From a virus (taxonomy: Duplodnaviria > Caudoviricetes), in the IMG/VR virus record IMGVR_UViG_3300032216_001721, positions 1 to 38,927 of that record: 38,927 nt of DNA. One strand, written 5' to 3'. Under the pieces are notes generated by a model. That model had not been told where the DNA came from. It saw nothing but the letters and a program-made list of their open reading frames with translations, and did no database searches. The position numbers were made by a program, and so were the translations under genes. Within the stretch, counting starts at the first letter, position 1; each line of letters begins with the position of its first letter. This document shows, in pieces, positions 18,851 to 35,531 of the stretch.

Positions 18851-20548
18851 TTATTTACTTATTAAAAACTTACCCAAAACTAAATAATCCATATCACAAT
18901 TATGAAATGTCCAAATTGCTTTTTCTGGGTCATTTGTCATTGTATGGTCTTTTAAGTTGAATGAGGTATTCAATAGAATAGGGGTTCCTGTTAGTTTTTC
19001 AAACTCCTTTAATAAGTCATAGTAAAGTGGGTTATCTTCTCTTTTAAGTGTCTGTATCCTTGCAGAATTGTCAACATGGGTTACTGATGGAATGTTTACT
19101 TCACTTTTAACTTTGACAACCTGATTCATATATGGTACATCTTCATCGGATATAAAATATTTTTTATAATCTTCAATTGTAACCGTTGGAGCAAATGGTC
19201 TAAACATTTCTCTTTTTTTGACAACCTTATTAATTCTATCTCTAACATCAAGTAAATGAGGATTTGCTAATATAGAACGATTGCCCAACGCTCTTGCACC
19301 AAATTCAGTTCTACCTTGAAACCAACCCACAATATTACCTTCTTCAATTAATTTTGCAACTTTTTTGCATAACATTTCATTGTTATCAAATAGTACAACT
19401 TGTTTTCTATGGTTTTGTAATATAATTTTAAGTAATTCAGGATTACTCCACTTCTCACCTAAATACGGAGATTGGTTATCACCACCTTTTACTTTTGGAT
19501 TACCCATACCAATATGATATTGATACAAACATGCACCAATTGCAGAACCACTATCTGAAGGTGCAAATGGAATCCAAACATTCTTAATTGATGTGGATGT
19601 TTTAATTTTACCATTAGCAGTACCATTATATGCACAACCTCCACCTAATACTAAATTATCACAATTCCAAATATTTGTAATTCTATTGATAATAAAATAT
19701 AATGCACTCTCATACCATCTTTGTAATGAAGCAGCTAAATCTTTGTGGTGTTGTTCAATTGGTTCATCTTTAAATCTTGGCGGAAATCCAATTAAATCAA
19801 TAAGTTGTTGGTTAAACATATCATTGTCTGATGTTTCCCATGTAAAGTAAGACATGTCCATCTTTACAATGTCAAAATCATCACCTACATTGGATATTTT
19901 ATCAAATACATTATTATATTTTTGTCTATCACCATAAGGTGCTAATCCCATCACTTTGTATTCACCTTCGTTTGGTTTAAATCCTAAATAAGCAGTAAAT
20001 GCTGAATAAACTAAACCCAATGAGTGCGGAAATTGTAATGTTTGTATTGTATGGAAGCCGGTCTCATCACACATTGCAGAGTATACAGTATTAAATTCAC
20101 CTACTCCATCAATTGATAAACCTATTGCTTTATCAAATGGTGATGTATAATATGAAAATGCTAAATGTGAACAATGATGTGGTGTATATGTAATAATACC
20201 ATTATATCCAATTGATTCTAATATTTGTTTTAAATTCCCTTCATTTTCTTTCCAACTTTTTAAAAACTTTTTCCATTTTGTGGGGTATCTAAAACCATAC
20301 CATTTACCAATTGTTTTTTTAACTCTATCAAATTTTAAATCTGGGTTTTCATACCAACAAACCATATCAATTTTATCAATTGTTATTTTTGTGTATTCTA
20401 AACACCATTGAATTGCTTTAAACGGAAAAGAGCTATCATGCTTTTCGCCGGATAGTTTCTCTTCTTCAATTGCACATATAACTTTACCATCTATAACCAA
20501 TGTTGCTGCAGAATCATGGTAAAATGCTGATAGACCTAATTGTATCAT
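18851..20548 (-). CDS. Carbamoyltransferase (NodU/CmcH/TobZ family)
   Basis: HDSAA, AIEEEK, HHCSH, IDGVGE, EYKVMGLAPYG, GWFQGRTEFGARALGNRSILA, REMFRPFAP, HVDNSARIQT, LLNTSFN. Confidence 0.95.
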   Translation of the reverse strand: MIQLGLSAFYHDSAATLVIDGKVICAIEEEKLSGEKHDSSFPFKAIQWCLEYTKITIDKIDMVCWYENPDLKFDRVKKTIGKWYGFRYPTKWKKFLKSWKENEGNLKQILESIGYNGIITYTPHHCSHLAFSYYTSPFDKAIGLSIDGVGEFNTVYSAMCDETGFHTIQTLQFPHSLGLVYSAFTAYLGFKPNEGEYKVMGLAPYGDRQKYNNVFDKISNVGDDFDIVKMDMSYFTWETSDNDMFNQQLIDLIGFPPRFKDEPIEQHHKDLAASLQRWYESALYFIINRITNIWNCDNLVLGGGCAYNGTANGKIKTSTSIKNVWIPFAPSDSGSAIGACLYQYHIGMGNPKVKGGDNQSPYLGEKWSNPELLKIILQNHRKQVVLFDNNEMLCKKVAKLIEEGNIVGWFQGRTEFGARALGNRSILANPHLLDVRDRINKVVKKREMFRPFAPTVTIEDYKKYFISDEDVPYMNQVVKVKSEVNIPSVTHVDNSARIQTLKREDNPLYYDLLKEFEKLTGTPILLNTSFNLKDHTMTNDPEKAIWTFHNCDMDYLVLGKFLISK

Positions 20549-20550
20549 AT

Positions 20551-21249
20551 TTAAATTTTTATATCACCCACCCTATCAAATTCATTGTACAACGCCATTT
20601 GTTTTTCTTTCATTTTATTAACAACTTTAGTTATATAATGTGTAGGATGGCCTGTCATTTCTCTAATAAGTAGATATAGTGATTTTTTATTAAAATTTTC
20701 TATATAATTTGCTCTTCTAAATAATTCCAATACCGAATCTGCAATTTGCATATCTCTTTTCTTTGGAAAATGATTTTCTAAATGTTTATCCCAATATTCT
20801 AACATTCTAATATTAAATGTTCTATGTTCATCGTTTCTTTCTTCTTCTCTAAAATTATTTTCAGTATCAAACGAATCAGGAAGGCCGGACATTACATCTG
20901 TATCTTTATATCTTTTATAATTTGCATTGTTATTTAAAATAAGATAGTTTCTTGCAACAATTGTAAAATAACTAAATGCTTTACCTTTACCGACTTTATA
21001 CATATGAATTTTTTCAATCATAAATGCAACAACCTCTGCCATTACATCTTTTGGGTCATCATCAAAATAAGTAAATTTCCATTTATTATAAACTATTTCT
21101 GCAAGTTTTTCAAATGCAGTTGCAATTCTTTCTCTATATAATTTATCTTTAATATATTGGTCATTGGTTAAATTGTACTCAATGATTGCATCTTCAGTAT
21201 CTTTTGGAAAATATTGTCTGTTTGGGCCTCTTTTTTTTCTAACTGGCAT
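20551..21249 (-). CDS. Phage sigma factor, T4 gp55 (late sigma)-like
   Basis: KAFSYFTIVARNYLI resembles the gp55 region-2 pattern F[AS]YFT. Start set to MPVRKK (21249) to minimise overlap; the ORF track extends to 21273. Confidence 0.7.
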   Translation of the reverse strand: MPVRKKRGPNRQYFPKDTEDAIIEYNLTNDQYIKDKLYRERIATAFEKLAEIVYNKWKFTYFDDDPKDVMAEVVAFMIEKIHMYKVGKGKAFSYFTIVARNYLILNNNANYKRYKDTDVMSGLPDSFDTENNFREEERNDEHRTFNIRMLEYWDKHLENHFPKKRDMQIADSVLELFRRANYIENFNKKSLYLLIREMTGHPTHYITKVVNKMKEKQMALYNEFDRVGDIKI

Positions 21250-21505
21250 TTTGTATTGATTTGAATTTTTCAATAGTTTCTTTAATTTGATAAAATATAG
21301 AACCTACTTCATCATCCTTCTCAAACATTTGACGACTATCAATTAGTCTTAATGCTTCCAGTAATGCTTCGTTTCTTTCAATTTCCGTTTGAATATAATA
21401 TTCATTTTCTTCAATTATATCTTCATATTTTTCCAACTTTTTTAATAAATTAAAAATTGAATATGACATTGTTATAATTAATATTATTAGTAGTGTGTAT
21501 AACAT
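21239..21505 (-). CDS. Small membrane-anchored coiled-coil protein
   Basis: Hydrophobic N-terminus; C-terminal FEKDDEVGSIF. Confidence 0.65.
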   Translation of the reverse strand: MLYTLLIILIITMSYSIFNLLKKLEKYEDIIEENEYYIQTEIERNEALLEALRLIDSRQMFEKDDEVGSIFYQIKETIEKFKSIQNAS

Positions 21506-21508
21506 ATA

Positions 21509-22156
21509 TTAAACTATTTCGTATCCTTGTAAAAAATATTTGTTTGCATTTTTGAATTTAACTTCAACTAATTCACCTTCTTTTGATTTCATTACAATTT
21601 TTTCATTTCTTCCAAAATCTACTTTTTTTACAATTTGTGTATTGTAAACTCTATCTTTAATTGTAATACCATCTAAGTGGTCAATCTCATGTTGAACTAT
21701 AACCGTCATCATGGTTTCTTTTGAAACGGATTCATTTGCTTTATCACCTTCTGGATTAATTTCAAATGTTAATTCACCTAAATTATCCGTATCAATTATA
21801 ACTTTAGAAGCTCTAATTGTTCTAATTGGCTTTGTAAGTGTAGATGGTATTGAAAGGCATCCTTCCATAAAAAGAAATCCATCTTTAGACCTATCTTTAA
21901 TAAAAGGATTCAATAAAAATAATTCAGTAGTATTTTCACCTTCTCCAAATTTAATTAAACATGCTCTCTTTTTAATTCCTAATTGTGTAGCTGAAATACC
22001 TATACCTGGATATTTTTCTAGTCCTTCTTCCAATTGTTTTCTTAACTCATCTGCTTCTTGTTGAGTTATTTCTGTTTTTAATATAGGAGTTTTTAGATAC
22101 TCCGTAAATTCTTTTGTTCTTAATCCATTAGAACCTTTGTCAACTATTAATTTCAT
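21509..22156 (-). CDS. def: Peptide deformylase
   Basis: All three PDF motifs present: GIGISATQLG, EGCLS and QHEIDHLDG. About 40-aa C-terminal extension. Confidence 0.95.
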   Translation of the reverse strand: MKLIVDKGSNGLRTKEFTEYLKTPILKTEITQQEADELRKQLEEGLEKYPGIGISATQLGIKKRACLIKFGEGENTTELFLLNPFIKDRSKDGFLFMEGCLSIPSTLTKPIRTIRASKVIIDTDNLGELTFEINPEGDKANESVSKETMMTVIVQHEIDHLDGITIKDRVYNTQIVKKVDFGRNEKIVMKSKEGELVEVKFKNANKYFLQGYEIV

Positions 22157-22159
22157 ATT

Positions 22160-22369
22160 TTATTTTTTTAATCCGTACTTAATCCATTTATACCAAACTC
22201 TTTCATGTAGATAATACTGAATAGGTTTGTATATCAATTCTGCTACCCCAAATGCTGCTCCTACTTTAATTGAACCACTTATCAACCACATTAATAAAAA
22301 CCCAACTAAGGTACTTATAATGCGATATGAGATAGTTTTTGCAATATGTCTCTTTCTTTCTACTTGCAT
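22160..22369 (-). CDS. DUF2061-like small membrane protein
   Basis: RHIAKTISYRIIST...YYLHERVW pattern. Confidence 0.8.
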   Translation of the reverse strand: MQVERKRHIAKTISYRIISTLVGFLLMWLISGSIKVGAAFGVAELIYKPIQYYLHERVWYKWIKYGLKK

Positions 22370-22746
22370 TATTTATCCATTCTATAAATTACCTTATCAC
22401 CATTTGAGTCAATATATTTATTTCTAATTGCAGTCCCACTAATTTTTTCGATTTCTTTTGGTGGTTCGTGATAGATAACCTCATATCCCACTCCTCTACC
22501 ATAATTTACACTTTCAATATCTGGAATAATTGATAATAAAACTTTATCAAAATTATTTGTAAAAAATGGTTCGTTTGATAATTCTTTTAAAACTTCTTGT
22601 GCTGATTTTGGGTTATTTTCATCTTGTGGAACATCTCTAATTGCTACCCAACAATTCTTTCCTTTTTCTAATTGTTGATTTATTAACCATTCATGTCCTT
22701 TGTGCCACGTTTGCCATCTTCCAATGAATAATGCATATTTTTTCAT
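22369..22746 (-). CDS. Cytidylyltransferase-like (HxGH) nucleotidyltransferase
   Basis: FIGRWQTWHKGH and ISGTAIR motifs. Start moved to MKKYALF (22746) because the track's TTG start lies inside the promoter. Confidence 0.8.
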   Translation of the reverse strand: MKKYALFIGRWQTWHKGHEWLINQQLEKGKNCWVAIRDVPQDENNPKSAQEVLKELSNEPFFTNNFDKVLLSIIPDIESVNYGRGVGYEVIYHEPPKEIEKISGTAIRNKYIDSNGDKVIYRMDK

Positions 22747-22767
22747 ACTAATTTGTTTATTATTTAC

Positions 22768-22797
22768 AATATACAAAATATATTCTAAATTACCAAA
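22768..22797 (-). promoter_or_regulatory. Bacteroidota sigma70-type promoter
   Basis: TTTG-gtaatttagaatatatttt-GTATATT(gt). Confidence 0.75.
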
Positions 22798-24662: not shown

Positions 24663-25310
24663 TTAAATTATGTTATCTTGTCTTTCAATGATTGTAGACA
24701 TATGGTCTGCCCAATGCATAATAAATTGTAACTTATAAACTAATTGTTTCTTTAAGTCGTGACCTGCTAAATACTTTTGATTATCTTCGTCATACATACC
24801 ATCGGTAAGTTTGATTGCAAAATACTCTTTCTCATTATACTGAATACCATAATGGTTCAATGTAAAGAAAGTTCTATCAGTTAAAGTCATATATGGGATA
24901 TTCTCATTACGAACAAATAAAGTTCCGTATTTCTTTTGAGACCATTCTTCTTGATTGGGTAAATAATGTAATTCACCCTTAACACCCAATTTTCCTAAAT
25001 CGTGATGTAGACAACTAAATATTAATTCCTCTTCGGTGAAGTCTATCTCCCCACCTTGCGTTACGAACAGTTCTCTCATTTTGAGAGCATTCTTACATAC
25101 ATTAAAGATGTGGTCTATATACCCACCTATATATGCGTTATGATAGTGTTTTGAGCCAGATGCGGCTGATAGTGTAAGGTTAATTCCTAATTCTTCTTCG
25201 GAATACATACGGAGTAATTTACTCAATCTTTCCCCTGCAAAGTATTTTTTAATAATTCCGATAAATCTATCGTAGTTTGCTTTTAATTCTTGTTCTGTCT
25301 TTTGTTTCAT
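24663..25310 (-). CDS. HD-domain phosphohydrolase
   Basis: HNAYIGGYIDH...LHHDLGK...WADH. Confidence 0.85.
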   Translation of the reverse strand: MKQKTEQELKANYDRFIGIIKKYFAGERLSKLLRMYSEEELGINLTLSAASGSKHYHNAYIGGYIDHIFNVCKNALKMRELFVTQGGEIDFTEEELIFSCLHHDLGKLGVKGELHYLPNQEEWSQKKYGTLFVRNENIPYMTLTDRTFFTLNHYGIQYNEKEYFAIKLTDGMYDEDNQKYLAGHDLKKQLVYKLQFIMHWADHMSTIIERQDNII

Positions 25311-25340
25311 AATTTAGAGTTTAATTGTTTATAATACTCT

Positions 25341-25370
25341 AATATACAAAAAATAATTTAATTTTCCAAA
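25341..25370 (-). promoter_or_regulatory. Bacteroidota sigma70-type promoter
   Basis: TTTG-gaaaattaaattatttttt-GTATATT(ag). Confidence 0.75.
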
Positions 25371-25371
25371 T

Positions 25372-26217
25372 TTATATTATATTAGTTTTTCTCTCTATCA
25401 TATATTTTTTTATATCATATATTGGTTCTTGTGTATTTGCATATTTATTATATAAATTCATATCATATAATTTTAAAAAATCTTTGTATATACCATGTTG
25501 TACCTGTGTAGTGTGATGTAATAAATCTCTTGCTTGCAAAGAACCATCATCTCTACCATGCCATCCAGCATCTCCTTCAATTAAATAATAATTTACACCA
25601 ATTGCATTTGCCAACGCTTTTATAGCGGATGTATAACTAATCCAATTAAATTCCATTTGCTCATCCGTTAATAATGATTCGGGCATTAAACTACCAAATT
25701 TTGACCACCAATTTTGATTATAATCTGCTATGATGTAATATTGTGGTCTTCCATTTTCTATAAATTCATAACGGGGATACATTGGTGCAAAATGAAAAAT
25801 ATTTTTAATTTTAAGTTCTTTGTAATATGCCAATAACAATCTAAAATGAGTTGCTACACCTGTACCACCTATTCCTAAATTCCAAAATTTTCCACCAATA
25901 ACATTATTTAATTTATAACTCCACGTATTTTCCAAATGATGTCCAATACCGAATGTGTGTGAACAACCTAAAAAAACATTACCCTCATCTTCCGAATTAA
26001 AATCATCAGGCGTTCTAAATCCTTCATTATTTAATTTATATTCTATTGGATTTTGTACATAATACTGAACACTAAAATTATCGGAATTATGTTTTAATAT
26101 ATCTTTCCATACCGTCTCAGAATCCGTTTCCATAAATTTATATGAATTGTTTGGCATAAAACCATAATCATCTAAATCGTTTCTATGTTTTAATGTTTTA
26201 TCCGTTAGGTATTTCAT
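25372..26217 (-). CDS. SGNH/GDSL-like hydrolase or acyltransferase
   Basis: NNEGFR, VFLGCSHTFG (block I, GCS variant), NLGIGGTG (block II), RDLLH (DxxH). Confidence 0.65.
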   Translation of the reverse strand: MKYLTDKTLKHRNDLDDYGFMPNNSYKFMETDSETVWKDILKHNSDNFSVQYYVQNPIEYKLNNEGFRTPDDFNSEDEGNVFLGCSHTFGIGHHLENTWSYKLNNVIGGKFWNLGIGGTGVATHFRLLLAYYKELKIKNIFHFAPMYPRYEFIENGRPQYYIIADYNQNWWSKFGSLMPESLLTDEQMEFNWISYTSAIKALANAIGVNYYLIEGDAGWHGRDDGSLQARDLLHHTTQVQHGIYKDFLKLYDMNLYNKYANTQEPIYDIKKYMIERKTNII

Positions 26218-26867
26218 TATATTATATTATTTTTCATATTATAAAAATCTTTCAATCTAAATTCATTTTCATCTGGATAATTTGATAAAATATTTTTAAT
26301 TAAATTTGTATTAATTAATAATTCATAAATATATTTAAAATAAATACTATTTGGTTTTTCATTTTTAGGGCCTTGTATTTGATGTACAATTCCTCTATTA
26401 TCTATAACCATAACAATATGAGTATAATTAAAATTATCTTTATTTTCTCTTAATTCTAAAGAATAATGATTAATTGGTATTCTACCACAATTATCCAATC
26501 TTACAATCATTTCTGCAGAATATAAATTTGAATTTTTTATCCAATAAAAACCATTTTTACAATCTAATATTATTTCATTAGTTTCTATATAATTTTGATT
26601 ATTATAATTTTGTTTATAGTTTAAAAACCATTCTTCCCATAGTATTTCAAACTCACTAATTGTGTAATTATTTATAATATTATAATTTGAATTTTCAACA
26701 TTATCTATGTAATTAATAATTTTATAAATATATTCTTTAATACTTGCATCTGAACGATTTCTTATATTTGGTATTTCTTTTTCTAATTTTTGCAATAAAA
26801 TTTCTCCATAGTGTTTACCTATTAAAGAAATTGTTAAATGTAATTGTTTTACTCTAGAAGAACTCAT
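26217..26867 (-). CDS. Hypothetical protein, PcfJ-like C-terminal region
   Basis: LDNCG...LELRE...HQIQGPKNEKP resembles PcfJ-like motifs. Confidence 0.4.
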   Translation of the reverse strand: MSSSRVKQLHLTISLIGKHYGEILLQKLEKEIPNIRNRSDASIKEYIYKIINYIDNVENSNYNIINNYTISEFEILWEEWFLNYKQNYNNQNYIETNEIILDCKNGFYWIKNSNLYSAEMIVRLDNCGRIPINHYSLELRENKDNFNYTHIVMVIDNRGIVHQIQGPKNEKPNSIYFKYIYELLINTNLIKNILSNYPDENEFRLKDFYNMKNNII

Positions 26868-27268
26868 TATATAATTGTTTTATTACCATCATATATAAAT
26901 TGTGTAAATAATTCTTCATTACATTTTATATCACATAATGCTTCTCCTGTTTGTGCATTTATGTTACCAATTCCATAATTATTATAATTCATAAAACAAT
27001 AAGGAATTGCAAATATAAAATAACAACCATTTCTTAATCTAATTTCATTTTTGTTAGAAAACATATCAATTAAATATAATTGTTGTAATATAGATAATTG
27101 TTTAAATTCTTCATTTGTTATTTTATATATTCCCGTTTCACCCAACCATTGTTGAAATACAAATTCACCTTTTTTTATATCTTTAATTGCAAACACACCA
27201 ACACCATGTGTAGAACTTGGTTTTATTCTTGTTACAACGTAATTTTTAATATATTCAAATGGAGACAT
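26867..27268 (-). CDS. SET-domain protein (methyltransferase-like, altered motifs)
   Basis: IKPSSTHGVGVFAIKDIKKGE, FMNY (canonical NH), ALCDIKCNEELFTQF (canonical ELxxDY). Confidence 0.8.
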   Translation of the reverse strand: MSPFEYIKNYVVTRIKPSSTHGVGVFAIKDIKKGEFVFQQWLGETGIYKITNEEFKQLSILQQLYLIDMFSNKNEIRLRNGCYFIFAIPYCFMNYNNYGIGNINAQTGEALCDIKCNEELFTQFIYDGNKTII

Positions 27269-27735
27269 TATAATAGTTTATTAAAATTTAAATCACCTTT
27301 TTCAAAAAATCCCACTAACGCATATCTTTGACCTGATATTACTTTATTAATTCCATGTGGGTTGTGTCCTTCAAAAAAATATATAGCTCCTTGTTTTTTT
27401 GGAATATTGTAATTAGAATTTAAAACATATAATTCACCACCTATATAATCATCGTTTAAACAAACACCTACATTAAAATATTCACTAACATCAATATGTG
27501 TCTCAAACTCACTACCCTCTTTAACACTTTGTAAGAACAGCATATTTAGTTCTTTGTTTATTTTAACAATACCTTTAACATATTTAAATATCTTCTCAAA
27601 TATCCATTCTGTGTCACTATTGCGATGAATATACCACACATAATACTCTGATTTAGAATAATACGGATTTGATAGTATACCTTCTTCTATTTTTGTAAAT
27701 TCTAATATTTTTTCACATTCTTCTTTTGTAAACAT
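27268..27735 (-). CDS. 2OG-Fe(II) oxygenase (prolyl-hydroxylase/PKHD-like)
   Basis: HID...YIGGEL...HGINKVISGQRYALV. Confidence 0.85.
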   Translation of the reverse strand: MFTKEECEKILEFTKIEEGILSNPYYSKSEYYVWYIHRNSDTEWIFEKIFKYVKGIVKINKELNMLFLQSVKEGSEFETHIDVSEYFNVGVCLNDDYIGGELYVLNSNYNIPKKQGAIYFFEGHNPHGINKVISGQRYALVGFFEKGDLNFNKLL

Positions 27736-27783
27736 TATAATAATTTATTAGGTTCCTAATAATTTAAAATTAAAATCTTCCAT
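27735..27783 (-). pseudogene. Possible collapsed gene remnant
   Basis: ATG-initiated MEDFNFKLLGT* in one frame and EPNKLL*, overlapping the next ATG, in another. Confidence 0.35.
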
Positions 27784-27785
27784 AA

Positions 27786-28472
27786 CTATATTATTGTTTT
27801 TATAAGTTTACGTCCTCTACTACCAAAGTGGGCTATTTTAGAATATAAATTTCTAATATCATCTTTTGCAAGTTCAATTGAAATATCTGATTTAATTAAA
27901 CTAATATAAATAATCAATCCTTCCATTGCGCCCAATAAACCGTATGCTAATTTTTGATAAGGACGAGTTTGTAAATCAATTTCTTCCCAATTTTTTAAGA
28001 ATAAATCTTTTGTTTCGTTTGTAGTTTTTAATATAAATAAACCTTCATGTATTAAAAATAAAGGTGTTTCTATCATTGGTGTAAGAATATCTAAATACTC
28101 TTTCATATAATCTAAAGAACCATATACATCTTTTAATTTATCCATATCAACAACTTCATCTGCATAAATGGTATTGTTATTTAAATTATCAATAACAGAA
28201 AAATCTATACCATTTCTAATAAAAATATCAGTATCTAAAAATAAAATAGTATTAACTTCTTTTAACGCTTCTTCAATTACAATTCTTTTTAAATTGAAAT
28301 TAAATTCATCTTCAATTTTAATTATTTTATAAACACCATCCGTAATATCATATGGATTATCCGTTCCTACAAATATTTTAAACTCTTTATTTATTTCCAA
28401 TAAAGATTCTGCAACGATATTAAATTCTTCAATATGTTCTTCACCATGTGCTAAAAAACAAATACCAAACAT
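27786..28472 (-). CDS. GT-A fold glycosyltransferase-like protein
   Basis: FNFNLKR...ILFLDTDIFI (DxD), IHEGLF, C-terminal HF. Confidence 0.6.
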   Translation of the reverse strand: MFGICFLAHGEEHIEEFNIVAESLLEINKEFKIFVGTDNPYDITDGVYKIIKIEDEFNFNLKRIVIEEALKEVNTILFLDTDIFIRNGIDFSVIDNLNNNTIYADEVVDMDKLKDVYGSLDYMKEYLDILTPMIETPLFLIHEGLFILKTTNETKDLFLKNWEEIDLQTRPYQKLAYGLLGAMEGLIIYISLIKSDISIELAKDDIRNLYSKIAHFGSRGRKLIKTII

Positions 28473-29017
28473 TATATTAATTCTTTTTTATAAATAGATT
28501 TTACATCTTTAAATTCAATTGCAATAATTAAAGAAATTCTTTCACCACTCTCAATTATTTCAACTTCATGTGGTGTATTTGGAGTAATTATTAAAAAATT
28601 ACCAATTTCTTTTGACATTTTTATTCCTTTGTTTTCTATGTGTGAAATAAAACTACCACCTGTATAATTTAATTCATGTGTAAGTTGGCCAACACATACA
28701 CAAAATCTATTAGTATCAAACGGGTCAACATCTACATGCTTTTTTATAAAATTACCTTTATTATATTTATAAACTTCAACTTCCAATTCATCTAACAATA
28801 ATTCATATCCAATACTATTAAATGCATTTTTTATTTTCTGCATCATAGAATTATCTTTTTCTATTTTAGCATATGATACCAAACTATTTCGTTTTTTAAT
28901 ATTATAACCTTTTTCATTTATGCCGGCCTTATAATATGATTGAACAAAATCCGTATGATTGTTTTTTAAATACAAACATTCATTTTCATCAAAAATAACT
29001 TTTTCAAATAATATCAT
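28472..29017 (-). CDS. 2OG-Fe(II) oxygenase
   Basis: YNKGNFIKKHVD...YTGGSF...PHEVEIIESGERISL. Confidence 0.85.
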   Translation of the reverse strand: MILFEKVIFDENECLYLKNNHTDFVQSYYKAGINEKGYNIKKRNSLVSYAKIEKDNSMMQKIKNAFNSIGYELLLDELEVEVYKYNKGNFIKKHVDVDPFDTNRFCVCVGQLTHELNYTGGSFISHIENKGIKMSKEIGNFLIITPNTPHEVEIIESGERISLIIAIEFKDVKSIYKKELI

Positions 29018-29814
29018 TATAATAATGTTTTATTTTTTATAATTAATGGAACTTTTGGGTTTTTATATTTCTCACCACCTGTATAATGTATATAGTAGTC
29101 TCCTTTTATATTTGTTTCTTTTTGTAAATTGGTAGTTGAAATTCCTAATTGATTTGCTAATATTGTTAAATAATATTGTGAACAGGTAGCAGTTGCATGA
29201 TATGTGGTAGTTCCAATTCCAATTAAAACTTCATTTCTTTCAAAGTTTTCCAAATTATCCATAACCAATGTTGTAGTAAATTTAGAAATATTATTTTTTA
29301 CAAACTTATTTGCAATTTCCCAATTCTTAATATACAATTCTTTAAATTCAGTATTATTAATATAAAGTATTCCGCAATTAAACACATCTACTTTTTTAGT
29401 AGACCAATAATCTATTTCATTACCAATATCAATTGTATCTAATAATTTTATAATTCTATTATATGTACCCCAAGCATTTGTTTCAGGACTATCATATACC
29501 AAATCTGATGTAAATTCTGGTAATCTTTTGTGTAAAATTAAATCCCCATCAATTAGACAGAATGTATCAGTTCTTGATTTTAAAACTTCTATTTTCATCC
29601 AATCAAACAATGGGGAATCGGAATTAGTTAATACAATAACTTCATCTGCTATTTTAATAAAATAATTTTTACAATCAATATTTGTGTATATAATTGTATA
29701 ATATCCTAATTCTTTTGCTTTTTTAATTGATTCTAAATAGTAATTTATTAGTATGAATTGCCAATCTTTTTTATGTTTTAATTGCATAGAATCAAATGTC
29801 CATACTAATTTCAT
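29017..29814 (-). CDS. GT-A-like nucleotide-sugar transferase (DUF6734-like)
   Basis: IYT, FCLIDGDLIL (DxD), FNCGILY, YIHYTG..KY. Confidence 0.55.
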   Translation of the reverse strand: MKLVWTFDSMQLKHKKDWQFILINYYLESIKKAKELGYYTIIYTNIDCKNYFIKIADEVIVLTNSDSPLFDWMKIEVLKSRTDTFCLIDGDLILHKRLPEFTSDLVYDSPETNAWGTYNRIIKLLDTIDIGNEIDYWSTKKVDVFNCGILYINNTEFKELYIKNWEIANKFVKNNISKFTTTLVMDNLENFERNEVLIGIGTTTYHATATCSQYYLTILANQLGISTTNLQKETNIKGDYYIHYTGGEKYKNPKVPLIIKNKTLL

Positions 29815-29829
29815 AACCTTTATTTAATA

Positions 29830-29970
29830 TTAAGAATGTGCATCTTTTAATAATGTAAAAATCTTATTAATAGTAGTTACTACTTTTGTTTTTTTAGTAT
29901 TATTAAGGAGTGTTATTGTTCTATTTTTAGCATCTGCTGCTGCAATTGATTTGTATACTTGTGTTGCCAT
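29830..29970 (-). CDS. 46-aa basic Thr/Lys-rich peptide, not in the ORF track
   Basis: MATQVYKSIAAADAKNRTITLLNNTKKTKVVTTINKIFTLLKDAHS; starts 1 nt after the stop of the 608-aa gene and fills the gap. Confidence 0.75.
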   Translation of the reverse strand: MATQVYKSIAAADAKNRTITLLNNTKKTKVVTTINKIFTLLKDAHS

Positions 29971-29971
29971 T

Positions 29972-31798
29972 TTATTTATTTAAATAGGGTAATAAATGTT
30001 TTTCTTGTCTTGCGAATTCTATGTTTAATAATGGATTATCTCCTAATCCAGAACAAATGTGACCATCTATAATATAGTTATGTTCACTTTCATATACTTT
30101 ATCACCATCTATTTCTAGATTGTATAAAGTTTTATAATAAGATTGATAATGTTCTGCATCTTGTAAGTTTTCTGCATATTTCCATTTACCATCAATAAAT
30201 AATGGATGTTTAGAATCTGCAATCAAACCACCTTTTTTAACCATATTAACAATACCATCAACTAAATGTGGTAAAGTATCGGTTACTATTCCTTTAACAT
30301 ATTCACCTTTATTATAAGATTTAACTACATCACCTTTTTGAATATCTGCAATTCTTTTTTGAGAACCATCAAACATTTCAACTAAACAATTTTCATCAAA
30401 ACAAACACCAAAAATTACATTGTGTGAAATTAATCTTAATACTTTATTTTGGCCTATTAAAAAGGTATCAGTATCTTCCATATTTGGAGAATATAAAGTT
30501 GTAGGGTTTTCTAATATTTCAAATTGAATATCTGTTATTTTAACTTTATTTCCTTCCGAATCCCATACATAATCGTCTGTATCCAAATCAAATCCTTTTT
30601 TATATGCAATTTGATTTTTTTCAGTATCATATATTAATAATCTATTTGCTCCACCCATTTCTATTACATCACCATCTTCAAATGTTAATTTTACAACATC
30701 GTTTGCATATGTATCAAATGGAAAAAGATAAACACAAACAGAACTTGTTGTTTCTGAACCGGATGGTAAAGTATCACCCGTTAAATACCAAGCACTCAAA
30801 CCATCCTCATCATCGGTATTAGGTTGCCCTGCTACATAAAACGAAGGATATAAACTACCCGTTTGCATTGTTGAAATTGGAATTTGATTACCGTCAATAT
30901 CCCATATTAATTCATCTGCTAATAAACCATGTTTTGTATTATTGATTGTGTTTGTTGCAAATTCGTAATAATGTTTTATATCTATTTTGTTATTAATTTG
31001 AGTATCATCTATTGTAATTGAAGATGGTAATTCAAATAAAGCATTAAGTTCATATGATGCAACGTTAATTACATCTAAATTAGAACCATAAACAACATTA
31101 TATGTTCTTATTGAAGACATTTTGTTTGTTGTTTGATAACCGTTGTTATGTGTGTATTGTTCTATAAGAACCGATGATGAAACAATATTTGTAAATTCAG
31201 TATATCTTTCTTCGATTGTTTCTGTTGATTTTCCTAATTTATAAAACTCTAATGGTTTATCATTGAATGTAATTGGTTTAGCTACTAAATCAGGAACATT
31301 AGAAATATTTGTAGTTCTTTCTAAAGTATCATAATTACCATAAACAGAAGATGAATGATAGAAATTTATAATAGATGTTGTATCACCAGCATCTGCAAAC
31401 ATTTTTAATAAATTCAAATTGTTTTTAGCATATTCTGAATCCAAAATTGCGGTTTCATCGTATGCCATTCTTAATATAAAAATATTTGAACTATCTTCTG
31501 GAGATGTTGGAAATATAGAATCACCATTTACTAATGTTTTAGTAATGTTTATAGATGGATTTAATGCTACAACCGAAGCAGATAAATGTTCAAATATATT
31601 TGATTGAATTGATGGTTTATAAACTATATGCAATTCACTAATAGAATTATCATTCAATAAAGTATTTAAATCCGTCCAATCAAATATACCATCTAAATTA
31701 AGTGTACTTGCGTAACCTGTATCTGTGTTTATTTCCAATAATTTTGGATTATCGTTACTATCCGTTACAAAATCCGCTGAGAAAAATGTTGCTTTCAT
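29972..31798 (-). CDS. Circularly permuted ATP-grasp-like domain + Hint + VIFGV + Hint fusion protein
   Basis: aa 1-290: SADF...LLEINT precedes PDLVAKP, LIEQY and SIRTY. Hint 1, aa 291-460: GLLADELIWDIDG...LISHN. Hint 2 from aa 466: CFDENCLVEMFDGSQKRIADIQKGDVV...KHPLF...YNLEI...HNYIIDG. Confidence 0.75.
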   Translation of the reverse strand: MKATFFSADFVTDSNDNPKLLEINTDTGYASTLNLDGIFDWTDLNTLLNDNSISELHIVYKPSIQSNIFEHLSASVVALNPSINITKTLVNGDSIFPTSPEDSSNIFILRMAYDETAILDSEYAKNNLNLLKMFADAGDTTSIINFYHSSSVYGNYDTLERTTNISNVPDLVAKPITFNDKPLEFYKLGKSTETIEERYTEFTNIVSSSVLIEQYTHNNGYQTTNKMSSIRTYNVVYGSNLDVINVASYELNALFELPSSITIDDTQINNKIDIKHYYEFATNTINNTKHGLLADELIWDIDGNQIPISTMQTGSLYPSFYVAGQPNTDDEDGLSAWYLTGDTLPSGSETTSSVCVYLFPFDTYANDVVKLTFEDGDVIEMGGANRLLIYDTEKNQIAYKKGFDLDTDDYVWDSEGNKVKITDIQFEILENPTTLYSPNMEDTDTFLIGQNKVLRLISHNVIFGVCFDENCLVEMFDGSQKRIADIQKGDVVKSYNKGEYVKGIVTDTLPHLVDGIVNMVKKGGLIADSKHPLFIDGKWKYAENLQDAEHYQSYYKTLYNLEIDGDKVYESEHNYIIDGHICSGLGDNPLLNIEFARQEKHLLPYLNK

Positions 31799-31818
31799 AT
31801 TATGTTTATGTAATTTAC

Positions 31819-31827
31819 TATAAATAT
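31819..31827 (-). promoter_or_regulatory. Putative late promoter ATATTTATA heading the twin-Hint operon
   Basis: Lies in the 31-bp gap upstream of 31798. Confidence 0.6.
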
Positions 31828-31829
31828 CA

Positions 31830-32381
31830 TTAAATTATAGATTTGTTCTTTTCTATATAATCCGAATCCAAAATAAAAATAAAAGCATATCTAATACCAT
31901 CCGTTATAGTTCTTACTTCATGTGCTAATTCGGAATTATAAAATAAAGCAGTCCCAACTTTTTTTGGTATTATATGTTCAATATCATTTTCATCCCAAAC
32001 AACTAATTCACCACCATCATAATCATCTGAAAGTTGAATGCCAAAATTATATTTTCTATAAAATGTGTTATTTAATACTTTATCTTTATGTCTAATAAAA
32101 AAATCACCTTTGGAATATTGATGTACAAATTGTGGTGATTCCATTCTATCTATTATTAATTTTTCTTTATTAATTTCTTCACCAGTTTCTTCTTTCAACC
32201 ATTGAAACAATTTATCATATACCCAACGATTGTTTTCGTTCTTATATAGAAAATGCCATCCATTATATTTTTTAGCAGATATATCCCAAATCACATCATC
32301 TTTATCTTGATTTGATTTAGCCTGTTGAATTATTAATTCACATTCTTCTTTTGTAAATAATTTTTTATGTTTTAATATCAT
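31830..32381 (-). CDS. 2OG-Fe(II) oxygenase
   Basis: YSKGDFFIRHKD...YDGGEL...HEVRTITDGIRYA. Confidence 0.9.
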   Translation of the reverse strand: MILKHKKLFTKEECELIIQQAKSNQDKDDVIWDISAKKYNGWHFLYKNENNRWVYDKLFQWLKEETGEEINKEKLIIDRMESPQFVHQYSKGDFFIRHKDKVLNNTFYRKYNFGIQLSDDYDGGELVVWDENDIEHIIPKKVGTALFYNSELAHEVRTITDGIRYAFIFILDSDYIEKNKSII

Positions 32382-32614
32382 AATCCTTCTACTTTATCCC
32401 ATTTATGTAAGTCACAGGTTCCCATCTTATCTGTAAATATCTTTTTACCAATTGGACAACCACATTCTTTACATTTAAATTTAAATACTACGGATTCAAT
32501 CATAGATGGACATTTTTTACAAATCTCTAATCTTTTTTGTGCAAGTAAAGATTGTTCTTGCGTAGGTTTACTAGCAATCCACCAAGCTTTAACAATATCT
32601 TTTATACTATCCAT
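32378..32614 (-). CDS. Small Cys-rich metal-binding protein (DUF6171-like)
   Basis: RLEICKKCP...CKECGCPI..K...CDLHKW. Start moved to the ATG at 32614 because the TTG at 32623 is part of the promoter. Confidence 0.7.
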   Translation of the reverse strand: MDSIKDIVKAWWIASKPTQEQSLLAQKRLEICKKCPSMIESVVFKFKCKECGCPIGKKIFTDKMGTCDLHKWDKVEGL

Positions 32615-32622
32615 AATCAACA

Positions 32623-32652
32623 AATATACAATAAATATTTTGTATTACCAAA
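32623..32652 (-). promoter_or_regulatory. Bacteroidota sigma70-type promoter
   Basis: TTTG-gtaatacaaaatatttatt-GTATATT, continuing TG to give a perfect TAnnTTTG -7 box. Confidence 0.8.
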
Positions 32653-32673
32653 TAAAAGGGGCAGTGGTTGGGA

Positions 32674-32719
32674 AAAGTCGTTTTTTTAAGAAAATTTTTA
32701 GGTATCCCCTATTGATAGT
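32674..32719. repeat. Intergenic direct repeat, copy 1 (46 bp)
   Basis: aaagtcgtttttttaagaaaatttttaggtatcccctattgatagt; differs from copy 2 by 2 substitutions and 1 indel. Confidence 0.9.
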
Positions 32720-32722
32720 TGA

Positions 32723-33337
32723 TTACAATAATTTTATTTCTATAAGTTCTTTATTTATTAAATAATCATAAAATTTATTGGCTTCTTCAATTTGTGTCAT
32801 TAGATTTTCCCAATGTTCCGGATAGTTTGTTTTAATAAATAACATAATTTCATCCTTTGTACACCAGTTTGGATAAAAATGAAAATCATAATCCTTTGAA
32901 TCATACTTTGGTAACTTTTTAATATTAAGTTTTTGTAAATATAATGATAAATCTTTTAATTCTATTATGTTTATTTTATTTTTATTTCGTCTCCATAACC
33001 AATATAATGTTTCATATAAGTCGTGTTGCCAATGTCCATTTAACTCATCAATTTTTTCATATCTACAAAACCCATTTATCACAGACTCTAAATCAACAGG
33101 TATATCTTTATTTCTTTCCGTATCATTATATTCGGTTAATATAGCAGTATGTAGTGCAGATGTTAGATGCTCCAATGGAGGCCTGACCACAATATCCGTA
33201 ATATTTGGTAAAAATAATTTTCTTTTAAATTCAGTTATATCAAATCCAACTCCGGTATGATTGAATACCGTATCTAAATACCTTGTACCACATTTTAGAG
33301 GTGTGAGTAATGTATTGTTATAAATTTTTAAATGCAT
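32723..33337 (-). CDS. Sulfotransferase-like protein (divergent)
   Basis: TPLKCGTRYL (5'-PSB-like), VVRPPLEHLTSA (3'-PB-like RxPxxxxxS), downstream HW. Confidence 0.5.
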   Translation of the reverse strand: MHLKIYNNTLLTPLKCGTRYLDTVFNHTGVGFDITEFKRKLFLPNITDIVVRPPLEHLTSALHTAILTEYNDTERNKDIPVDLESVINGFCRYEKIDELNGHWQHDLYETLYWLWRRNKNKINIIELKDLSLYLQKLNIKKLPKYDSKDYDFHFYPNWCTKDEIMLFIKTNYPEHWENLMTQIEEANKFYDYLINKELIEIKLL

Positions 33338-33503: not shown

Positions 33504-33759
33504 TTCTAAAAATTGATGTGTAAATACCTACAAGTCCAACTATCATCCAAAATATGTTTAGAATAAGATAAGCTTTGTTACTTCTTTCCCAAGATGCGTA
33601 TGTTAAAATGATAGCATCAATGGTATTCCATATCCACATTGTAAGGAAAGGAGTTTCAGGGCCCATAATAGAAAGAGTACCAAATGCCATAACTCGCATT
33701 ACTACTCCAATTAATTCTAATAACTTAACAGTTTTTTCAGTTAATAACTTTAATTTCAT
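33487..33759 (-). CDS. Small three-helix membrane protein
   Basis: Three hydrophobic segments; LILNIFWMIVGLVGIY end; ATGA overlap with the radical SAM stop. Confidence 0.7.
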   Translation of the reverse strand: MKLKLLTEKTVKLLELIGVVMRVMAFGTLSIMGPETPFLTMWIWNTIDAIILTYASWERSNKAYLILNIFWMIVGLVGIYTSIFRNGISH

Positions 33760-35531
33760 ACTAAATCAGGATATAATTTGAAAAATTCTTCATCTTTTAT
33801 TCTTCGTCTTTCTAATTCTTCTTCTTTTTGTTTTATTAATAACTCTTCTTCTTTTTCTTTTTTCTTTGCAACTAATTCATCTTTCAATTCTAAATATAAA
33901 CCTCTATTATAGATAGAATATGGTATTCCAATTTCTTTAAACAATTCTTCTGCTTTTTCTAATCTATCTAATCTATCTAATGGAGTATTCCATTTAGTTG
34001 AAAAGTTTACACCATTAATATATTCAATCCATTCTTTTTCTGTATCTCTCCAACGGATTAAAAGTGGTTGGTGAATCAAGAACGCCGAACAAGTTAAGAT
34101 TTCTGCCATACAATCATTGAACTCTGATATAAAGTTTAATGTTTTTTGAAAGTCATCTTCACCTTCATTTAAATAACCAATAATGATTTGCATTGCAAAT
34201 TGCATTGGATATTCATTTTCTTTATTAATTTGTCTTACATTTTCAAATATTTCTCTCACACCTTTTGTATCGGTATATTTCTTCATATGTCTAAGAACAG
34301 GCTCGGATGCAGATTCAAAACCTGTAATCATTTTCATTAAACCTGCTTTACGATACAATCTCATAGTATCTAAATCTCTCATTGGAGCTTGTAGTCTCAT
34401 ATTGCCACCAAATGTAATTTTTAATTCTTTTTCAATAAGAGTCTCACAAAATTGTTTTAACCACTTTGGATTACCATTAATAATAGAATCGTGACAAAAG
34501 AAATTTGTTTGTCCTTTATTAACCCAATGTTCTATTTCCTCAATTACATTATCAATTGTACGATAACGAAACTCAGGTATAAAATCAGGTACTGAACAAA
34601 AAGAACATCTATAAGGACATCCTCTACTCATTACCAAAGGTACATTATATTGGTATGTAGATTTATAATAGTAGTTATCTTCTAATGCGGAATAGTCAGG
34701 AAAGGGTAGGGAGTCCATATCAATATTAGGTCTTGTCTTATTATGGATGAATACTCCATTACAATTCCAAACCAAACCTTTTATATTCATTAAAGAGGAT
34801 TCACTCCAATCGGACTTAAGTATTTCAATAATTGTCATTTCACCATCACCTCTACTAAACGCATCAATGAAAGTATATTCTTTTGTTTTGTATTGTGTGT
34901 TGGGCAATTTACCAAAGTCAAGAACTTCTATACCATTACCACCAATTAGTATTTTAATGTGAGGGTACTTTTCTTTTATTAATTTTGCAATAGCAAGTGT
35001 TGCATCTATATTACCATCTATAATACTAAACCCTAAGAATGCAGGATTTGCTTTTTCAATATATCTACCAACAAAACCATATGCAATATCGAATATCTCT
35101 TTATAGTTGTATAGTATTTCAAATTCACCTTGACGCGAGTAAGTATTAAAGTAATTAAAAAATTCACTTTGTTTATCAGGTGGATTTAAAAAGAAATAAT
35201 CTATAACAGGGTCTATGATAGCAACTTTTAAATCTGGATGAAACTTATCTACATACGTCTTTAATCCTACTATACCTGAATAGTAACCTGATTCATTAAT
35301 ATTAGGAACTTGCATTAAAAGACAATCTTGTTCTTCAATATCTTCAAAATGGAATTTATGTTCTACTTTGATTTTAGAATGACGAACTCTTTCCGTTTGA
35401 CGCATGTATTGTAATAGGTCGACTTTAACATCTACTATTTCTTTACCACTTTTAAATTGGTCTTTAATCCTTTTTTCGGTTTTGGTAATTTGTTCTTCTG
35501 GATTTATTATGTTATCTAATGTCATCGGCAT
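33756..35531 (-). CDS. B12-binding radical SAM enzyme
   Basis: SRGCPYRCSFC (CxxxCxxC); cobalamin-binding region (GFS...AKLIKEKYPHIKILIGG...GDGE), LPFPDY, GFESAS. Confidence 0.92.
   Translation of the reverse strand: MPMTLDNIINPEEQITKTEKRIKDQFKSGKEIVDVKVDLLQYMRQTERVRHSKIKVEHKFHFEDIEEQDCLLMQVPNINESGYYSGIVGLKTYVDKFHPDLKVAIIDPVIDYFFLNPPDKQSEFFNYFNTYSRQGEFEILYNYKEIFDIAYGFVGRYIEKANPAFLGFSIIDGNIDATLAIAKLIKEKYPHIKILIGGNGIEVLDFGKLPNTQYKTKEYTFIDAFSRGDGEMTIIEILKSDWSESSLMNIKGLVWNCNGVFIHNKTRPNIDMDSLPFPDYSALEDNYYYKSTYQYNVPLVMSRGCPYRCSFCSVPDFIPEFRYRTIDNVIEEIEHWVNKGQTNFFCHDSIINGNPKWLKQFCETLIEKELKITFGGNMRLQAPMRDLDTMRLYRKAGLMKMITGFESASEPVLRHMKKYTDTKGVREIFENVRQINKENEYPMQFAMQIIIGYLNEGEDDFQKTLNFISEFNDCMAEILTCSAFLIHQPLLIRWRDTEKEWIEYINGVNFSTKWNTPLDRLDRLEKAEELFKEIGIPYSIYNRGLYLELKDELVAKKKEKEEELLIKQKEEELERRRIKDEEFFKLYPDLV

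Follow-up and report, generated by a model that had tools for sequence, protein, structure and literature searches.

A viral precursor with a permuted ATP-grasp fold, a Hint domain, a short variable peptide and a Vint module: a possible single-use route to peptide conjugates

The subject of this paper is a 608-residue precursor protein encoded by a viral DNA of 38,927 nucleotides (Duplodnaviria, Caudoviricetes; IMG/VR record IMGVR_UViG_3300032216_001721; this whole stretch is referred to as the window), in which a ligase-like domain, a Hint domain, a pentapeptide and a second Hint domain follow each other in one chain. Parts of this arrangement have described counterparts. Borosins are enzyme-fused precursors of ribosomally synthesized and post-translationally modified peptides (RiPPs), and graspetides are RiPPs of the ATP-grasp kind, the core of which carries Ser, Thr or Lys donors and Asp or Glu acceptors behind a leader. 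YgiC and YjfC, ligases of the circularly permuted ATP-grasp fold, are given as peptidyl-polyamine synthetases in a passage of PMC12568646 that cites the primary paper. Type A bacterial intein-like (BIL) domains splice by attack of an amine on the thioester and without a nucleophile at position +1 (according to a section of PMC4031507); excerpts of PMC8616854 report that BIL2 forms isopeptides with lysine and that BUBL likewise sets its cargo beside BILs and transfers it to lysines. Class 3 inteins are defined by Cys at position F:4 and a Trp-Cys-Thr motif (passages of PMC4031507 and PMC7664689). Cyclisation of the terminal Asn is assisted by the block-F His, and intein-based two-intein (TWIN) cyclisation uses an N-terminal Cys on the target (both in sections of PMC7765530). 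Eukaryotic Vint domains keep mainly the N-terminal motifs of the Hint fold (PMC2362128, section 12).

The window is a piece of a large tailed phage: it carries baseplate, gp25, endonuclease and primase genes, nearly all genes lie on one strand, and the G+C content is 28%. Promoter-like sites in it are fewer than in shuffled sequence (23 vs 33.5), and no terminator was found in it. All residues and junctions reported by an earlier sequence-only reading were located at their positions in the 608-residue open reading frame (ORF): Gly291, GGANR at 382-386, His459-Asn460, VIFGV at 461-465, Cys466 and DSKHP at 528-532. The precursor and the gene following it are composed as follows.

29972..31798 (-): precursor gene P0001, 608 residues, in the order ligase, Hint 1, peptide, Vint (from the ORF and its relatives)
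30929..31798 (-): residues 1-290, circularly permuted ATP-grasp amide-ligase fold (from models, structure matches and conserved residues)
30419..30928 (-): residues 291-460, Hint 1, predicted to cleave only at its C-terminus (from model and profile comparison)
30404..30418 (-): residues 461-465, VIFGV, this lineage's short form of the hypervariable tail peptide of the family, free of Lys
29975..30403 (-): residues 466-608, Vint-type Hint, an exchangeable C-terminal module predicted to form only an N-terminal thioester
29830..29970 (-): 46-residue partner protein, a helix of which is predicted to pack against the ligase sheet; 1 nt past the precursor stop codon

We propose, at about even confidence, that the precursor is used once: its tail peptide would be conjugated through its C-terminus by the ligase and then cut free at Asn460. 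Sequence comparison and structure models together show the layout, the folds, the junction residues, a swappable last module, the partner gene and a C-terminal tag on neighbouring gene products.

Constant and exchangeable parts of the precursor family

Searches with the whole protein and with the ligase domain (775 relatives found; 228 cluster representatives from the ligase-domain search), together with viral loci, gave 512 distinct full-length proteins, of which 479 were parsed. The unparsed ones comprise 14 without His-Asn in the search range (shifted in 12, the other 2 ending before it), 12 in which the last Hint is truncated or unclear, 6 fragments and 1 near-duplicate; a further 12 proteins had their parse corrected manually. 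A further search for tail-only forms led mostly to loci found before. Almost all members of the family lie on viral contigs. Two of 57 candidates in a collection of species genomes matched, on contigs of metagenome-assembled genomes of 2.8 and 6.8 kb, the second weakly; one such relative (L081) has phage-type neighbours and is probably a binned piece of phage. The ligase, the Vint and the relative P0336 had no match in 50,697 GenBank phage records. No family covering the whole precursor was found in Pfam, NCBIfam or PHROGs, and a feature-based atlas search returned unnamed and ATP-grasp clusters at 0.86-0.90, to be taken as a lead only.

As judged by sequence, the constant unit of the family is the ligase, Hint 1, its His-Asn and a peptide, whereas a second Hint may be lacking or replaced by another module. 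After Hint 1 and the tail the parsed proteins end at a stop codon (195) or go on with one BIL (157), two BILs (59), a BIL and a Vint (35), an S74-like chaperone (19), three BILs (8) or a Vint alone (6), so counted that at least two S74 forms, P0373 and P0374, both with Lys just before the chaperone, are misfiled under stop. BIL-ended forms amount to 224 and Vint-ended ones to 41. An insertion of ~100-200 residues before or within the ligase-Hint 1 region is found in L143, L145, L148 (6001-7713), P0304, P0294 and P0296.

Residues 1-290 are predicted to be an ATP-driven amide ligase. The domain modelled alone (mean predicted local distance difference test, pLDDT, 95.7) matches circularly permuted ATP-grasp ligases with Z 9-10 and a root-mean-square deviation (rmsd) of 4-5 Å over 205-238 aligned residues; nearly all of the top 25 structure rows are of this kind (best Z 10.1, rmsd 5.1 Å, 238 aligned), and Foldseek gives E 4.5e-6. 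Standard, non-permuted ATP-grasps align to the model only from residue ~50. The ligase profile returned only weak thioredoxin-like matches (E 0.07 or worse) when solved structures were searched by sequence, so the fold assignment, which agrees with the ATP-grasp-like ligase read earlier from the sequence, rests on the models. Residues 2-37 of P0336 match the RimK profile at 230-266 (E 1e-3).

Model residues 1-285 correspond to YgiC 94-378, the ligase begins at residue 119 of human glutathione synthetase, and model residue 1 falls on residue 94-147 or 310 of the matched chains; the first ~93-120 residues of YgiC and of the glutathione synthetases have no counterpart in the precursor. The Asp...Glu-x-Asn metal/ATP motif and the Lys of permuted ATP-grasp ligases are present in the family: Glu22, Asn24 and Asp120 are kept in 479/479 proteins, Asp9 and Arg110 in 478 each, Arg231 in 475 and Lys174 in 470, and this holds in all four groups (short BIL-ended 211, Vint-ended 41, short stop-ended 43, Cys-rich 184). 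Asp9, Glu22, Asn24 and Lys174 are presumably the metal- and ATP-binding residues. The Arg-x-Asp motif of the glutathione/glutathionylspermidine synthetase clade is absent (Ser7 here, Ser or Gly family-wide), as is the N-terminal segment of ~100 residues, and membership in that clade was rejected on both grounds.

The segment missing from the ligase may be supplied in part by the neighbouring small gene. Of the 133 distinct ligase genes with a sufficiently long flank, 132 are directly followed by an ORF of 30-65 residues. The partner profile reaches at least 15 bits in 73/75 short-tail loci vs 6/58 Cys-rich loci; the small ORFs following in these 58 Cys-rich loci all have the same His-containing end. 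When the ligase was modelled with ATP and the partner, the complex scored 0.95 (best control 0.03); at least 87% of contacts were common to the runs, and partner pLDDT was at least 73. The mark set for this score was reached by 116/157 solved pairs and by 2/215 mismatched ones, figures that apply only roughly to the partner job. The model supports binding of the partner to the ligase, and we infer that it takes the place of some of the missing N-terminal segment, in which case resemblance to solved folds may have contributed to the high complex score. The partner profile gave nothing meaningful against solved structures, and the partner belongs to no Pfam, NCBIfam or PHROG family.

Pfam gave no match to Hint 1. 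Its AlphaFold model (residues 288-457) superimposes on the C. thermocellum BIL 2lwy with Z 19.2 and rmsd 1.4 Å over 137 residues, many structure-alignment rows pair residue 291 with intein residue 1, and comparison of its profile with that of the family's intact BILs (hhalign) gives 95.6% and E 1e-8, reaching the terminal His-Asn. By model and profile, residues 291-460 thus adopt the Hint fold expected from the sequence. The domain has neither Cys1, nor the Thr and His of block B, nor the block-F His, the position of which is occupied by Asp444; His459-Asn460 is retained. At this end His459 is kept in 474/479 proteins, Glu441 in 445/479 and Asp444 in 451/479; distant members with ~25% overall identity yet retain these residues. 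Asn460 is present in all 479, partly because the parse demanded it. Gly291 is retained in 279/295 short-tail proteins; in the Cys-rich group this position could not be aligned. This pattern suggests that selection maintains an altered C-terminal site at which the domain would cut, and Hint 1 is likely to cut only at its own C-terminal Asn.

Known intein classes do not accommodate Hint 1. Class 1 inteins and type A BILs share its terminal His-Asn, but Gly stands at position 1 and GGANR at block B. In respect of class 2, position +1 is Val461 and block B is absent; Cys occurs at +1 in 41/265 relatives, in which block B is likewise absent. For class 3, position F:4 is Ser437 (Thr, Glu or Ser in relatives) and not Cys. 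Between blocks A and B the domain has an insertion (residues ~324-353, 30720-30830, minus strand) with Gly-x-Pro, Asp-Asp, Trp and Pro-x-Gly-Ser; it is conserved in the short-tail groups and could be a binding site.

The last module is a Vint domain (Pfam PF14623, 53.5 bits vs a cut-off of 27; match to 8r2c with E 2.5e-5) with Cys466, His531 and the end motif SGLGDN, and without a terminal Asn. It is therefore not a decayed intein. Cys1 and the block-B His are invariant in 7/7 aligned Vint copies, and all seven end in SGLGDN without Asn; the missing Asn is therefore a trait of the Vint and not a loss matched to Hint 1. Internal Hints of the family are intact BILs, Cys1, Thr, His and His-Asn being invariant in 29 aligned copies.

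The sequence-only reading had taken the reciprocal losses of the two Hints as the mark of a co-selected pair. This view has to be abandoned, since the Hint 1 form is family-wide and includes the 195 proteins without a second Hint, since the module is exchanged, and since the same Vint occurs in unrelated proteins. In a tree of ligase and Hint 1 for 36 rows, the well-supported branches require that the last module switched between BIL and Vint no fewer than 10 times; these rows were hand-picked to contain sister pairs, and a shuffle control is therefore uninformative. The sister of the window's clade (support 100/99) consists of P0007 and P0008, which have three tail residues, an intact BIL and Lys. 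The Vint of P0006 is identical to that of the window at 106/143 positions, the ligase only at 157/290. In 3 or 4 of 18 loci (L248, L249 and L250; L251 is ambiguous) this Vint forms the C-terminus of a phage protein unrelated to the precursor, by which it can be regarded as a mobile C-terminal module in phages. Two of these proteins have ~1077 residues and one ~290; the matches lie at 3501-3914 in L249 and 453-848 in L250. A second kind of Asn-less terminal Hint, with another end motif, is seen in P0271, P0277, P0281, P0307 and L254; unlike in the Vint forms, Lys is retained right before its Cys1.

Tail peptide, terminal lysine and the proposed path

Tails are hypervariable and range from one residue to long six-cysteine peptides. 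Distant members (~25-35% identity) have long tails rich in Cys, Trp, Tyr and Gly, often with six cysteines, and an intact BIL lies within such a tail, between the cysteines and the Lys-bearing end, in L161, L197, L205, L219, P0347, P0359 and P0379; these members are good test cases for natural splicing without a nucleophile. At the short end, 41/265 Hint-followed proteins have no linker at all. Among the 120 relatives listed (of 775), 119 show His-Asn, linker and Cys in this order, with linkers of 0-7 residues. The expectation that His-Asn and Cys are conserved around a varying linker holds for the residues (the His of Hint 1, and Cys1 with the block-B His of Vints and BILs) and for the variable linkers, but not for the second Hint itself, which is absent from 195/479.

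It had been supposed that VIFGV, bearing a free amine at one end and a thioester at the other, is cut out by the pair of half-active Hints, giving a cyclic pentapeptide or a free signal. The junction residues fit this scheme, and VIFGV is kept at 5/5 positions in P0003 and P0004 and at 4/5 in P0005, the ligases of which are 62-90% identical. Nevertheless, the direct layout of Hint 1, peptide and Vint occurs in 6/479 proteins and VIFGV or AIFGV in 4/479, the sister clade has three residues followed by an intact BIL and Lys, and none of 366 distinct predicted peptides begins with Cys, which disagrees with closure of the TWIN type. Ring closure of an all-L, Pro-free pentapeptide with Val at both ends is disfavoured as well, and the ligase would be left without a job despite its intact active site. 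We regard this scheme as very improbable. Release of the intervening peptide stays plausible, with both junction motifs under selection; VIFGV as a special product does not. Of the products named earlier, the cyclic pentapeptide is the least likely outcome, and transfer of a tag to a protein or lipid comes close to the reading favoured here.

The most regular feature of the tails is a lysine near the end. Its frequency was counted on the assumption that internal BILs splice out and compared with 1000 within-peptide shuffles. Lys is found among the last three residues in 163/188 distinct stop-ended peptides (shuffle mean 41.5, maximum 57), 17/19 S74-ended ones (mean 3.7, maximum 8) and 130/139 BIL-ended ones (mean 69.5, maximum 86); in Vint-ended peptides it is at chance level (3/23, mean 4.5). 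Any Lys is present in 38/38 short stop-ended tails vs 6/23 Vint-ended ones. Position +1 is Lys in 210/224 BIL forms, and the remaining 14/14 carry Lys further down the tail. The simplest reading of these counts is that the Vint replaces the coded lysine, either adding an amine to the tail or bypassing the need for it.

Under the single-use scheme the 46-residue partner would dock on the ligase and complete or activate it. The C-terminus of the tail would be set by the last module: a stop codon, S74 cleavage or BIL splicing would leave a Lys-ended tail, and in the window protein Cys466 of the Vint would form a thioester at Val465. Water could take this thioester, or an amine such as a polyamine, free lysine or the lysine of a protein. 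The tail end, still tethered, would then be joined by the ligase to an acceptor through an amide bond; in long-tailed relatives the tethered tail would also be modified by enzymes of the neighbouring genes. Cyclisation of Asn460 would finally release the conjugate, so that a linear tag or peptide conjugate, and not free cyclic VIFGV, would be formed. That this product decorates a phage or host protein is a guess. The most specific version of this scheme can be put forward only with low confidence: the Vint either provides the tail with an amine resembling lysine or links it directly to a lysine of the target, the ligase, completed by the partner, couples the tail onward, and a rebuilt Glu/Asp/His/Asn site releases the conjugate, which would make one protein enzyme, protease and substrate of an undescribed phage tagging pathway.

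The same lysine can be accounted for differently. Hint 1 might not cut at all and serve as a tether, the tail end (Lys or a Vint-made amide) being a carrier arm that the ligase would charge with a small molecule, to be worked on by the tagged neighbouring enzymes, in the manner of LysW-type carrier pathways. The absence of Cys1 and of both the block-B and block-F His in Hint 1 would agree with this, as would tails reduced to one Lys, the constancy of this residue, and a doubt about the register of the Hint 1 model discussed below. A passive tether would have no need, though, of the His-Asn, Glu441 and Asp444 kept throughout the family, and the long six-cysteine tails resemble products. The carrier arm is considered unlikely.

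Gene neighbourhood and points against the single-use scheme

The precursor gene lies in an island of genes with a common C-terminal tag.

24663..33337 (-): island around the precursor gene (from ORF C-termini and family matches)
26867-27268 (-): SET match, in the island
27268-27735, 28472-29017 and 31830-32381 (-): 2-oxoglutarate-Fe(II) oxygenase matches, in the island
27786-28472 (-): weak GT8 match, in the island
29017-29814 (-): DUF6734 match, in the island
32378-32623 (-): small Cys-rich ORF, untagged, weak DUF6171, phrog_13558; in the island, two genes upstream of the precursor
33756..35531 (-): B12-binding radical S-adenosylmethionine (SAM) enzyme, untagged, just upstream of the island (from family matches)

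Ten of the 12 ORFs of at least 60 residues within 24663-33337 end in two Leu/Ile residues, vs 0/32 outside. The tag on these ten neighbours is of the Lys/Asn-x-Leu/Ile-Leu/Ile type; many tail peptides end in Lys and a hydrophobic residue, similar to it. Candidate binders of the tag are the ligase, the insertion of Hint 1, a scaffold or a protease. Over 160 loci, the main clusters of oxygenases, sulfotransferase-like proteins, halogenases and radical SAM enzymes carry the tag in 71-100% of members, several flanking clusters in 0-3%. A relative of the small Cys-rich ORF is found near the ligase gene in 26/26 fully flanked Cys-rich loci, often directly before it. The radical SAM enzyme of the window has matches to methyltransferase families, all below the cut-off. 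Further away, 18851-22776 (minus strand) holds untagged genes for a carbamoyltransferase, a peptide deformylase, a DUF2061 protein and a nucleotidyltransferase-like protein; these recur near the island in many loci, and an adenylylsulfate kinase occurs in others.

Of 26 fully flanked Cys-rich loci, 22 have a tryptophan halogenase gene no further than 5 kb upstream or 4.5 kb downstream, as against 0/45 short-tail loci, the window included. A variable core with linked tailoring enzymes, as in RiPP pathways, fits the Cys-rich relatives; for VIFGV the fit is weak, and the comparison is confounded with clade.

Several points speak against the single-use scheme. The link of halogenase and tail is itself confounded with clade, none of the 4 short Trp-containing tails having a halogenase. 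VIFGV offers the ten tagged neighbours almost nothing to modify, and in 25/479 proteins the predicted product has only one or two residues, which is meagre for a precursor of 600 residues. Some of the Lys found after BILs may simply reflect how BILs end (His-Asn-Lys), and all counts are of related sequences and not of independent events, by which they overstate independence. In the ligase, Ser or Gly takes the position, derived from structure-alignment offsets, of an Arg of the glutathione-type ligases, two residues before the first Asp, which we take to be catalytic there. The model of Hint 1 places residue ~456, four residues away, and not Asn460 at the position of the terminal Asn. The strand in question has low confidence (pLDDT 60-64) and the loop preceding it varies in length among relatives, for which reasons the register was taken from the sequence; this evidence favours Asn460 as the terminal Asn. 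Hint 1 has no block-F His to help Asn cyclisation (a role stated in the same sections of PMC7765530), and BILs mostly cleave rather than splice, according to passages of PMC4031507 and PMC7664689.

The surplus of island enzymes over the reactive side chains of VIFGV is the main support for another explanation, that in the short-tailed lineage the peptide is vestigial, the ligase, partner and island acting on a different substrate (a virion or host surface) and BILs and Vints being mobile, self-removing passengers. It would also suit the one to three extra Hints that come and go, the 10 or more switches among the hand-picked tree rows, the P0006 Vint closer than its ligase, and the same Vint at the ends of unrelated phage proteins. 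It is difficult to reconcile with the His-Asn and terminal Lys that persist in short forms without a second Hint (Lys in 38/38), and the loss of Lys follows the Vint and is not random. We hold this explanation to be doubtful.

Comparison with known systems

If the single-use scheme is correct and the tail leaves the precursor in conjugated form, large uncultured phages would possess a route to modified peptides or protein tags that has no described counterpart and is composed of a fused ligase, a built-in Hint protease, a separately encoded helper peptide and C-terminally tagged tailoring enzymes. The window protein would be the smallest test case, both for cutting at Asn by a Hint without Cys1 and without both catalytic His, and for the nucleophile captured by the Vint. 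Should the Vint indeed substitute for lysine, it would gain a concrete class of substrates, and a natural release-and-activate pair of Hints would be at hand. Protein ligation would also benefit from a module that frees short peptides and forms thioesters inside cells.

With the permuted ATP-grasp ligases YgiC/YjfC (7uk8, 7uk6), glutathionylspermidine synthetase (2io8) and the glutathione and homoglutathione synthetases (1m0w, 2hgs, 3kal) the precursor shares the fold, the permuted order and the N-terminal Asp...Glu-x-Asn; it differs from them in its 7-13% identity, the truncated N-terminus, Ser/Gly in place of Arg, the fusion to a Hint and a peptide, and the separate 46-residue partner. The best structural matches to Hint 1 are type A BILs (2lwy) and BIL2 of the Tetrahymena BUBL1 locus (6y75/6tmm). 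In contrast to BUBL, the cargo is a short variable peptide and not ubiquitin, Hint 1 cannot form a thioester, and an ATP-dependent ligase is fused in front; membership in BUBL was rejected, as the window protein has no ubiquitin-like domain and no intact BIL.

Like the Vint domain (PF14623; 8r2c; VWA-Vint as treated in section 12 of PMC2362128) and the Hedgehog Hint, the last module has Cys1 and the block-B His and a different C-terminal region. Unlike VWA-Vint proteins, the precursor is viral, has no VWA or Vwaint, and its Vint is preceded by a pentapeptide and another Hint; the N-terminal parts being of ATP-grasp and Hint fold, it was not counted among these proteins. A C-cleaving Hint, a peptide and an N-cleaving Hint in one chain recall engineered cyclisation by TWIN or expressed protein ligation, except that no N-terminal Cys occurs in 366/366 peptides and that this layout is a minority state of the family.

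As with borosins and graspetides, an enzyme carries or acts on a gene-encoded variable peptide with tailoring enzymes nearby; the precursor differs from them in being viral, in the built-in Hint release instead of a separate protease, in its permuted ligase and in a leaderless peptide. VIFGV has no Ser, Thr or Lys donors and no Asp or Glu acceptors, so the graspetides do not include it. A fusion of ATP-grasp, Hint and peptide was not found described in the open-licence full text of PubMed Central and bioRxiv, the scope of the search. Among inteins, BUBL, VWA-Vint proteins, graspetides and the glutathione-synthetase clade the precursor family fits no class, though it works like parts of each, and the kind of system is considered to be new.

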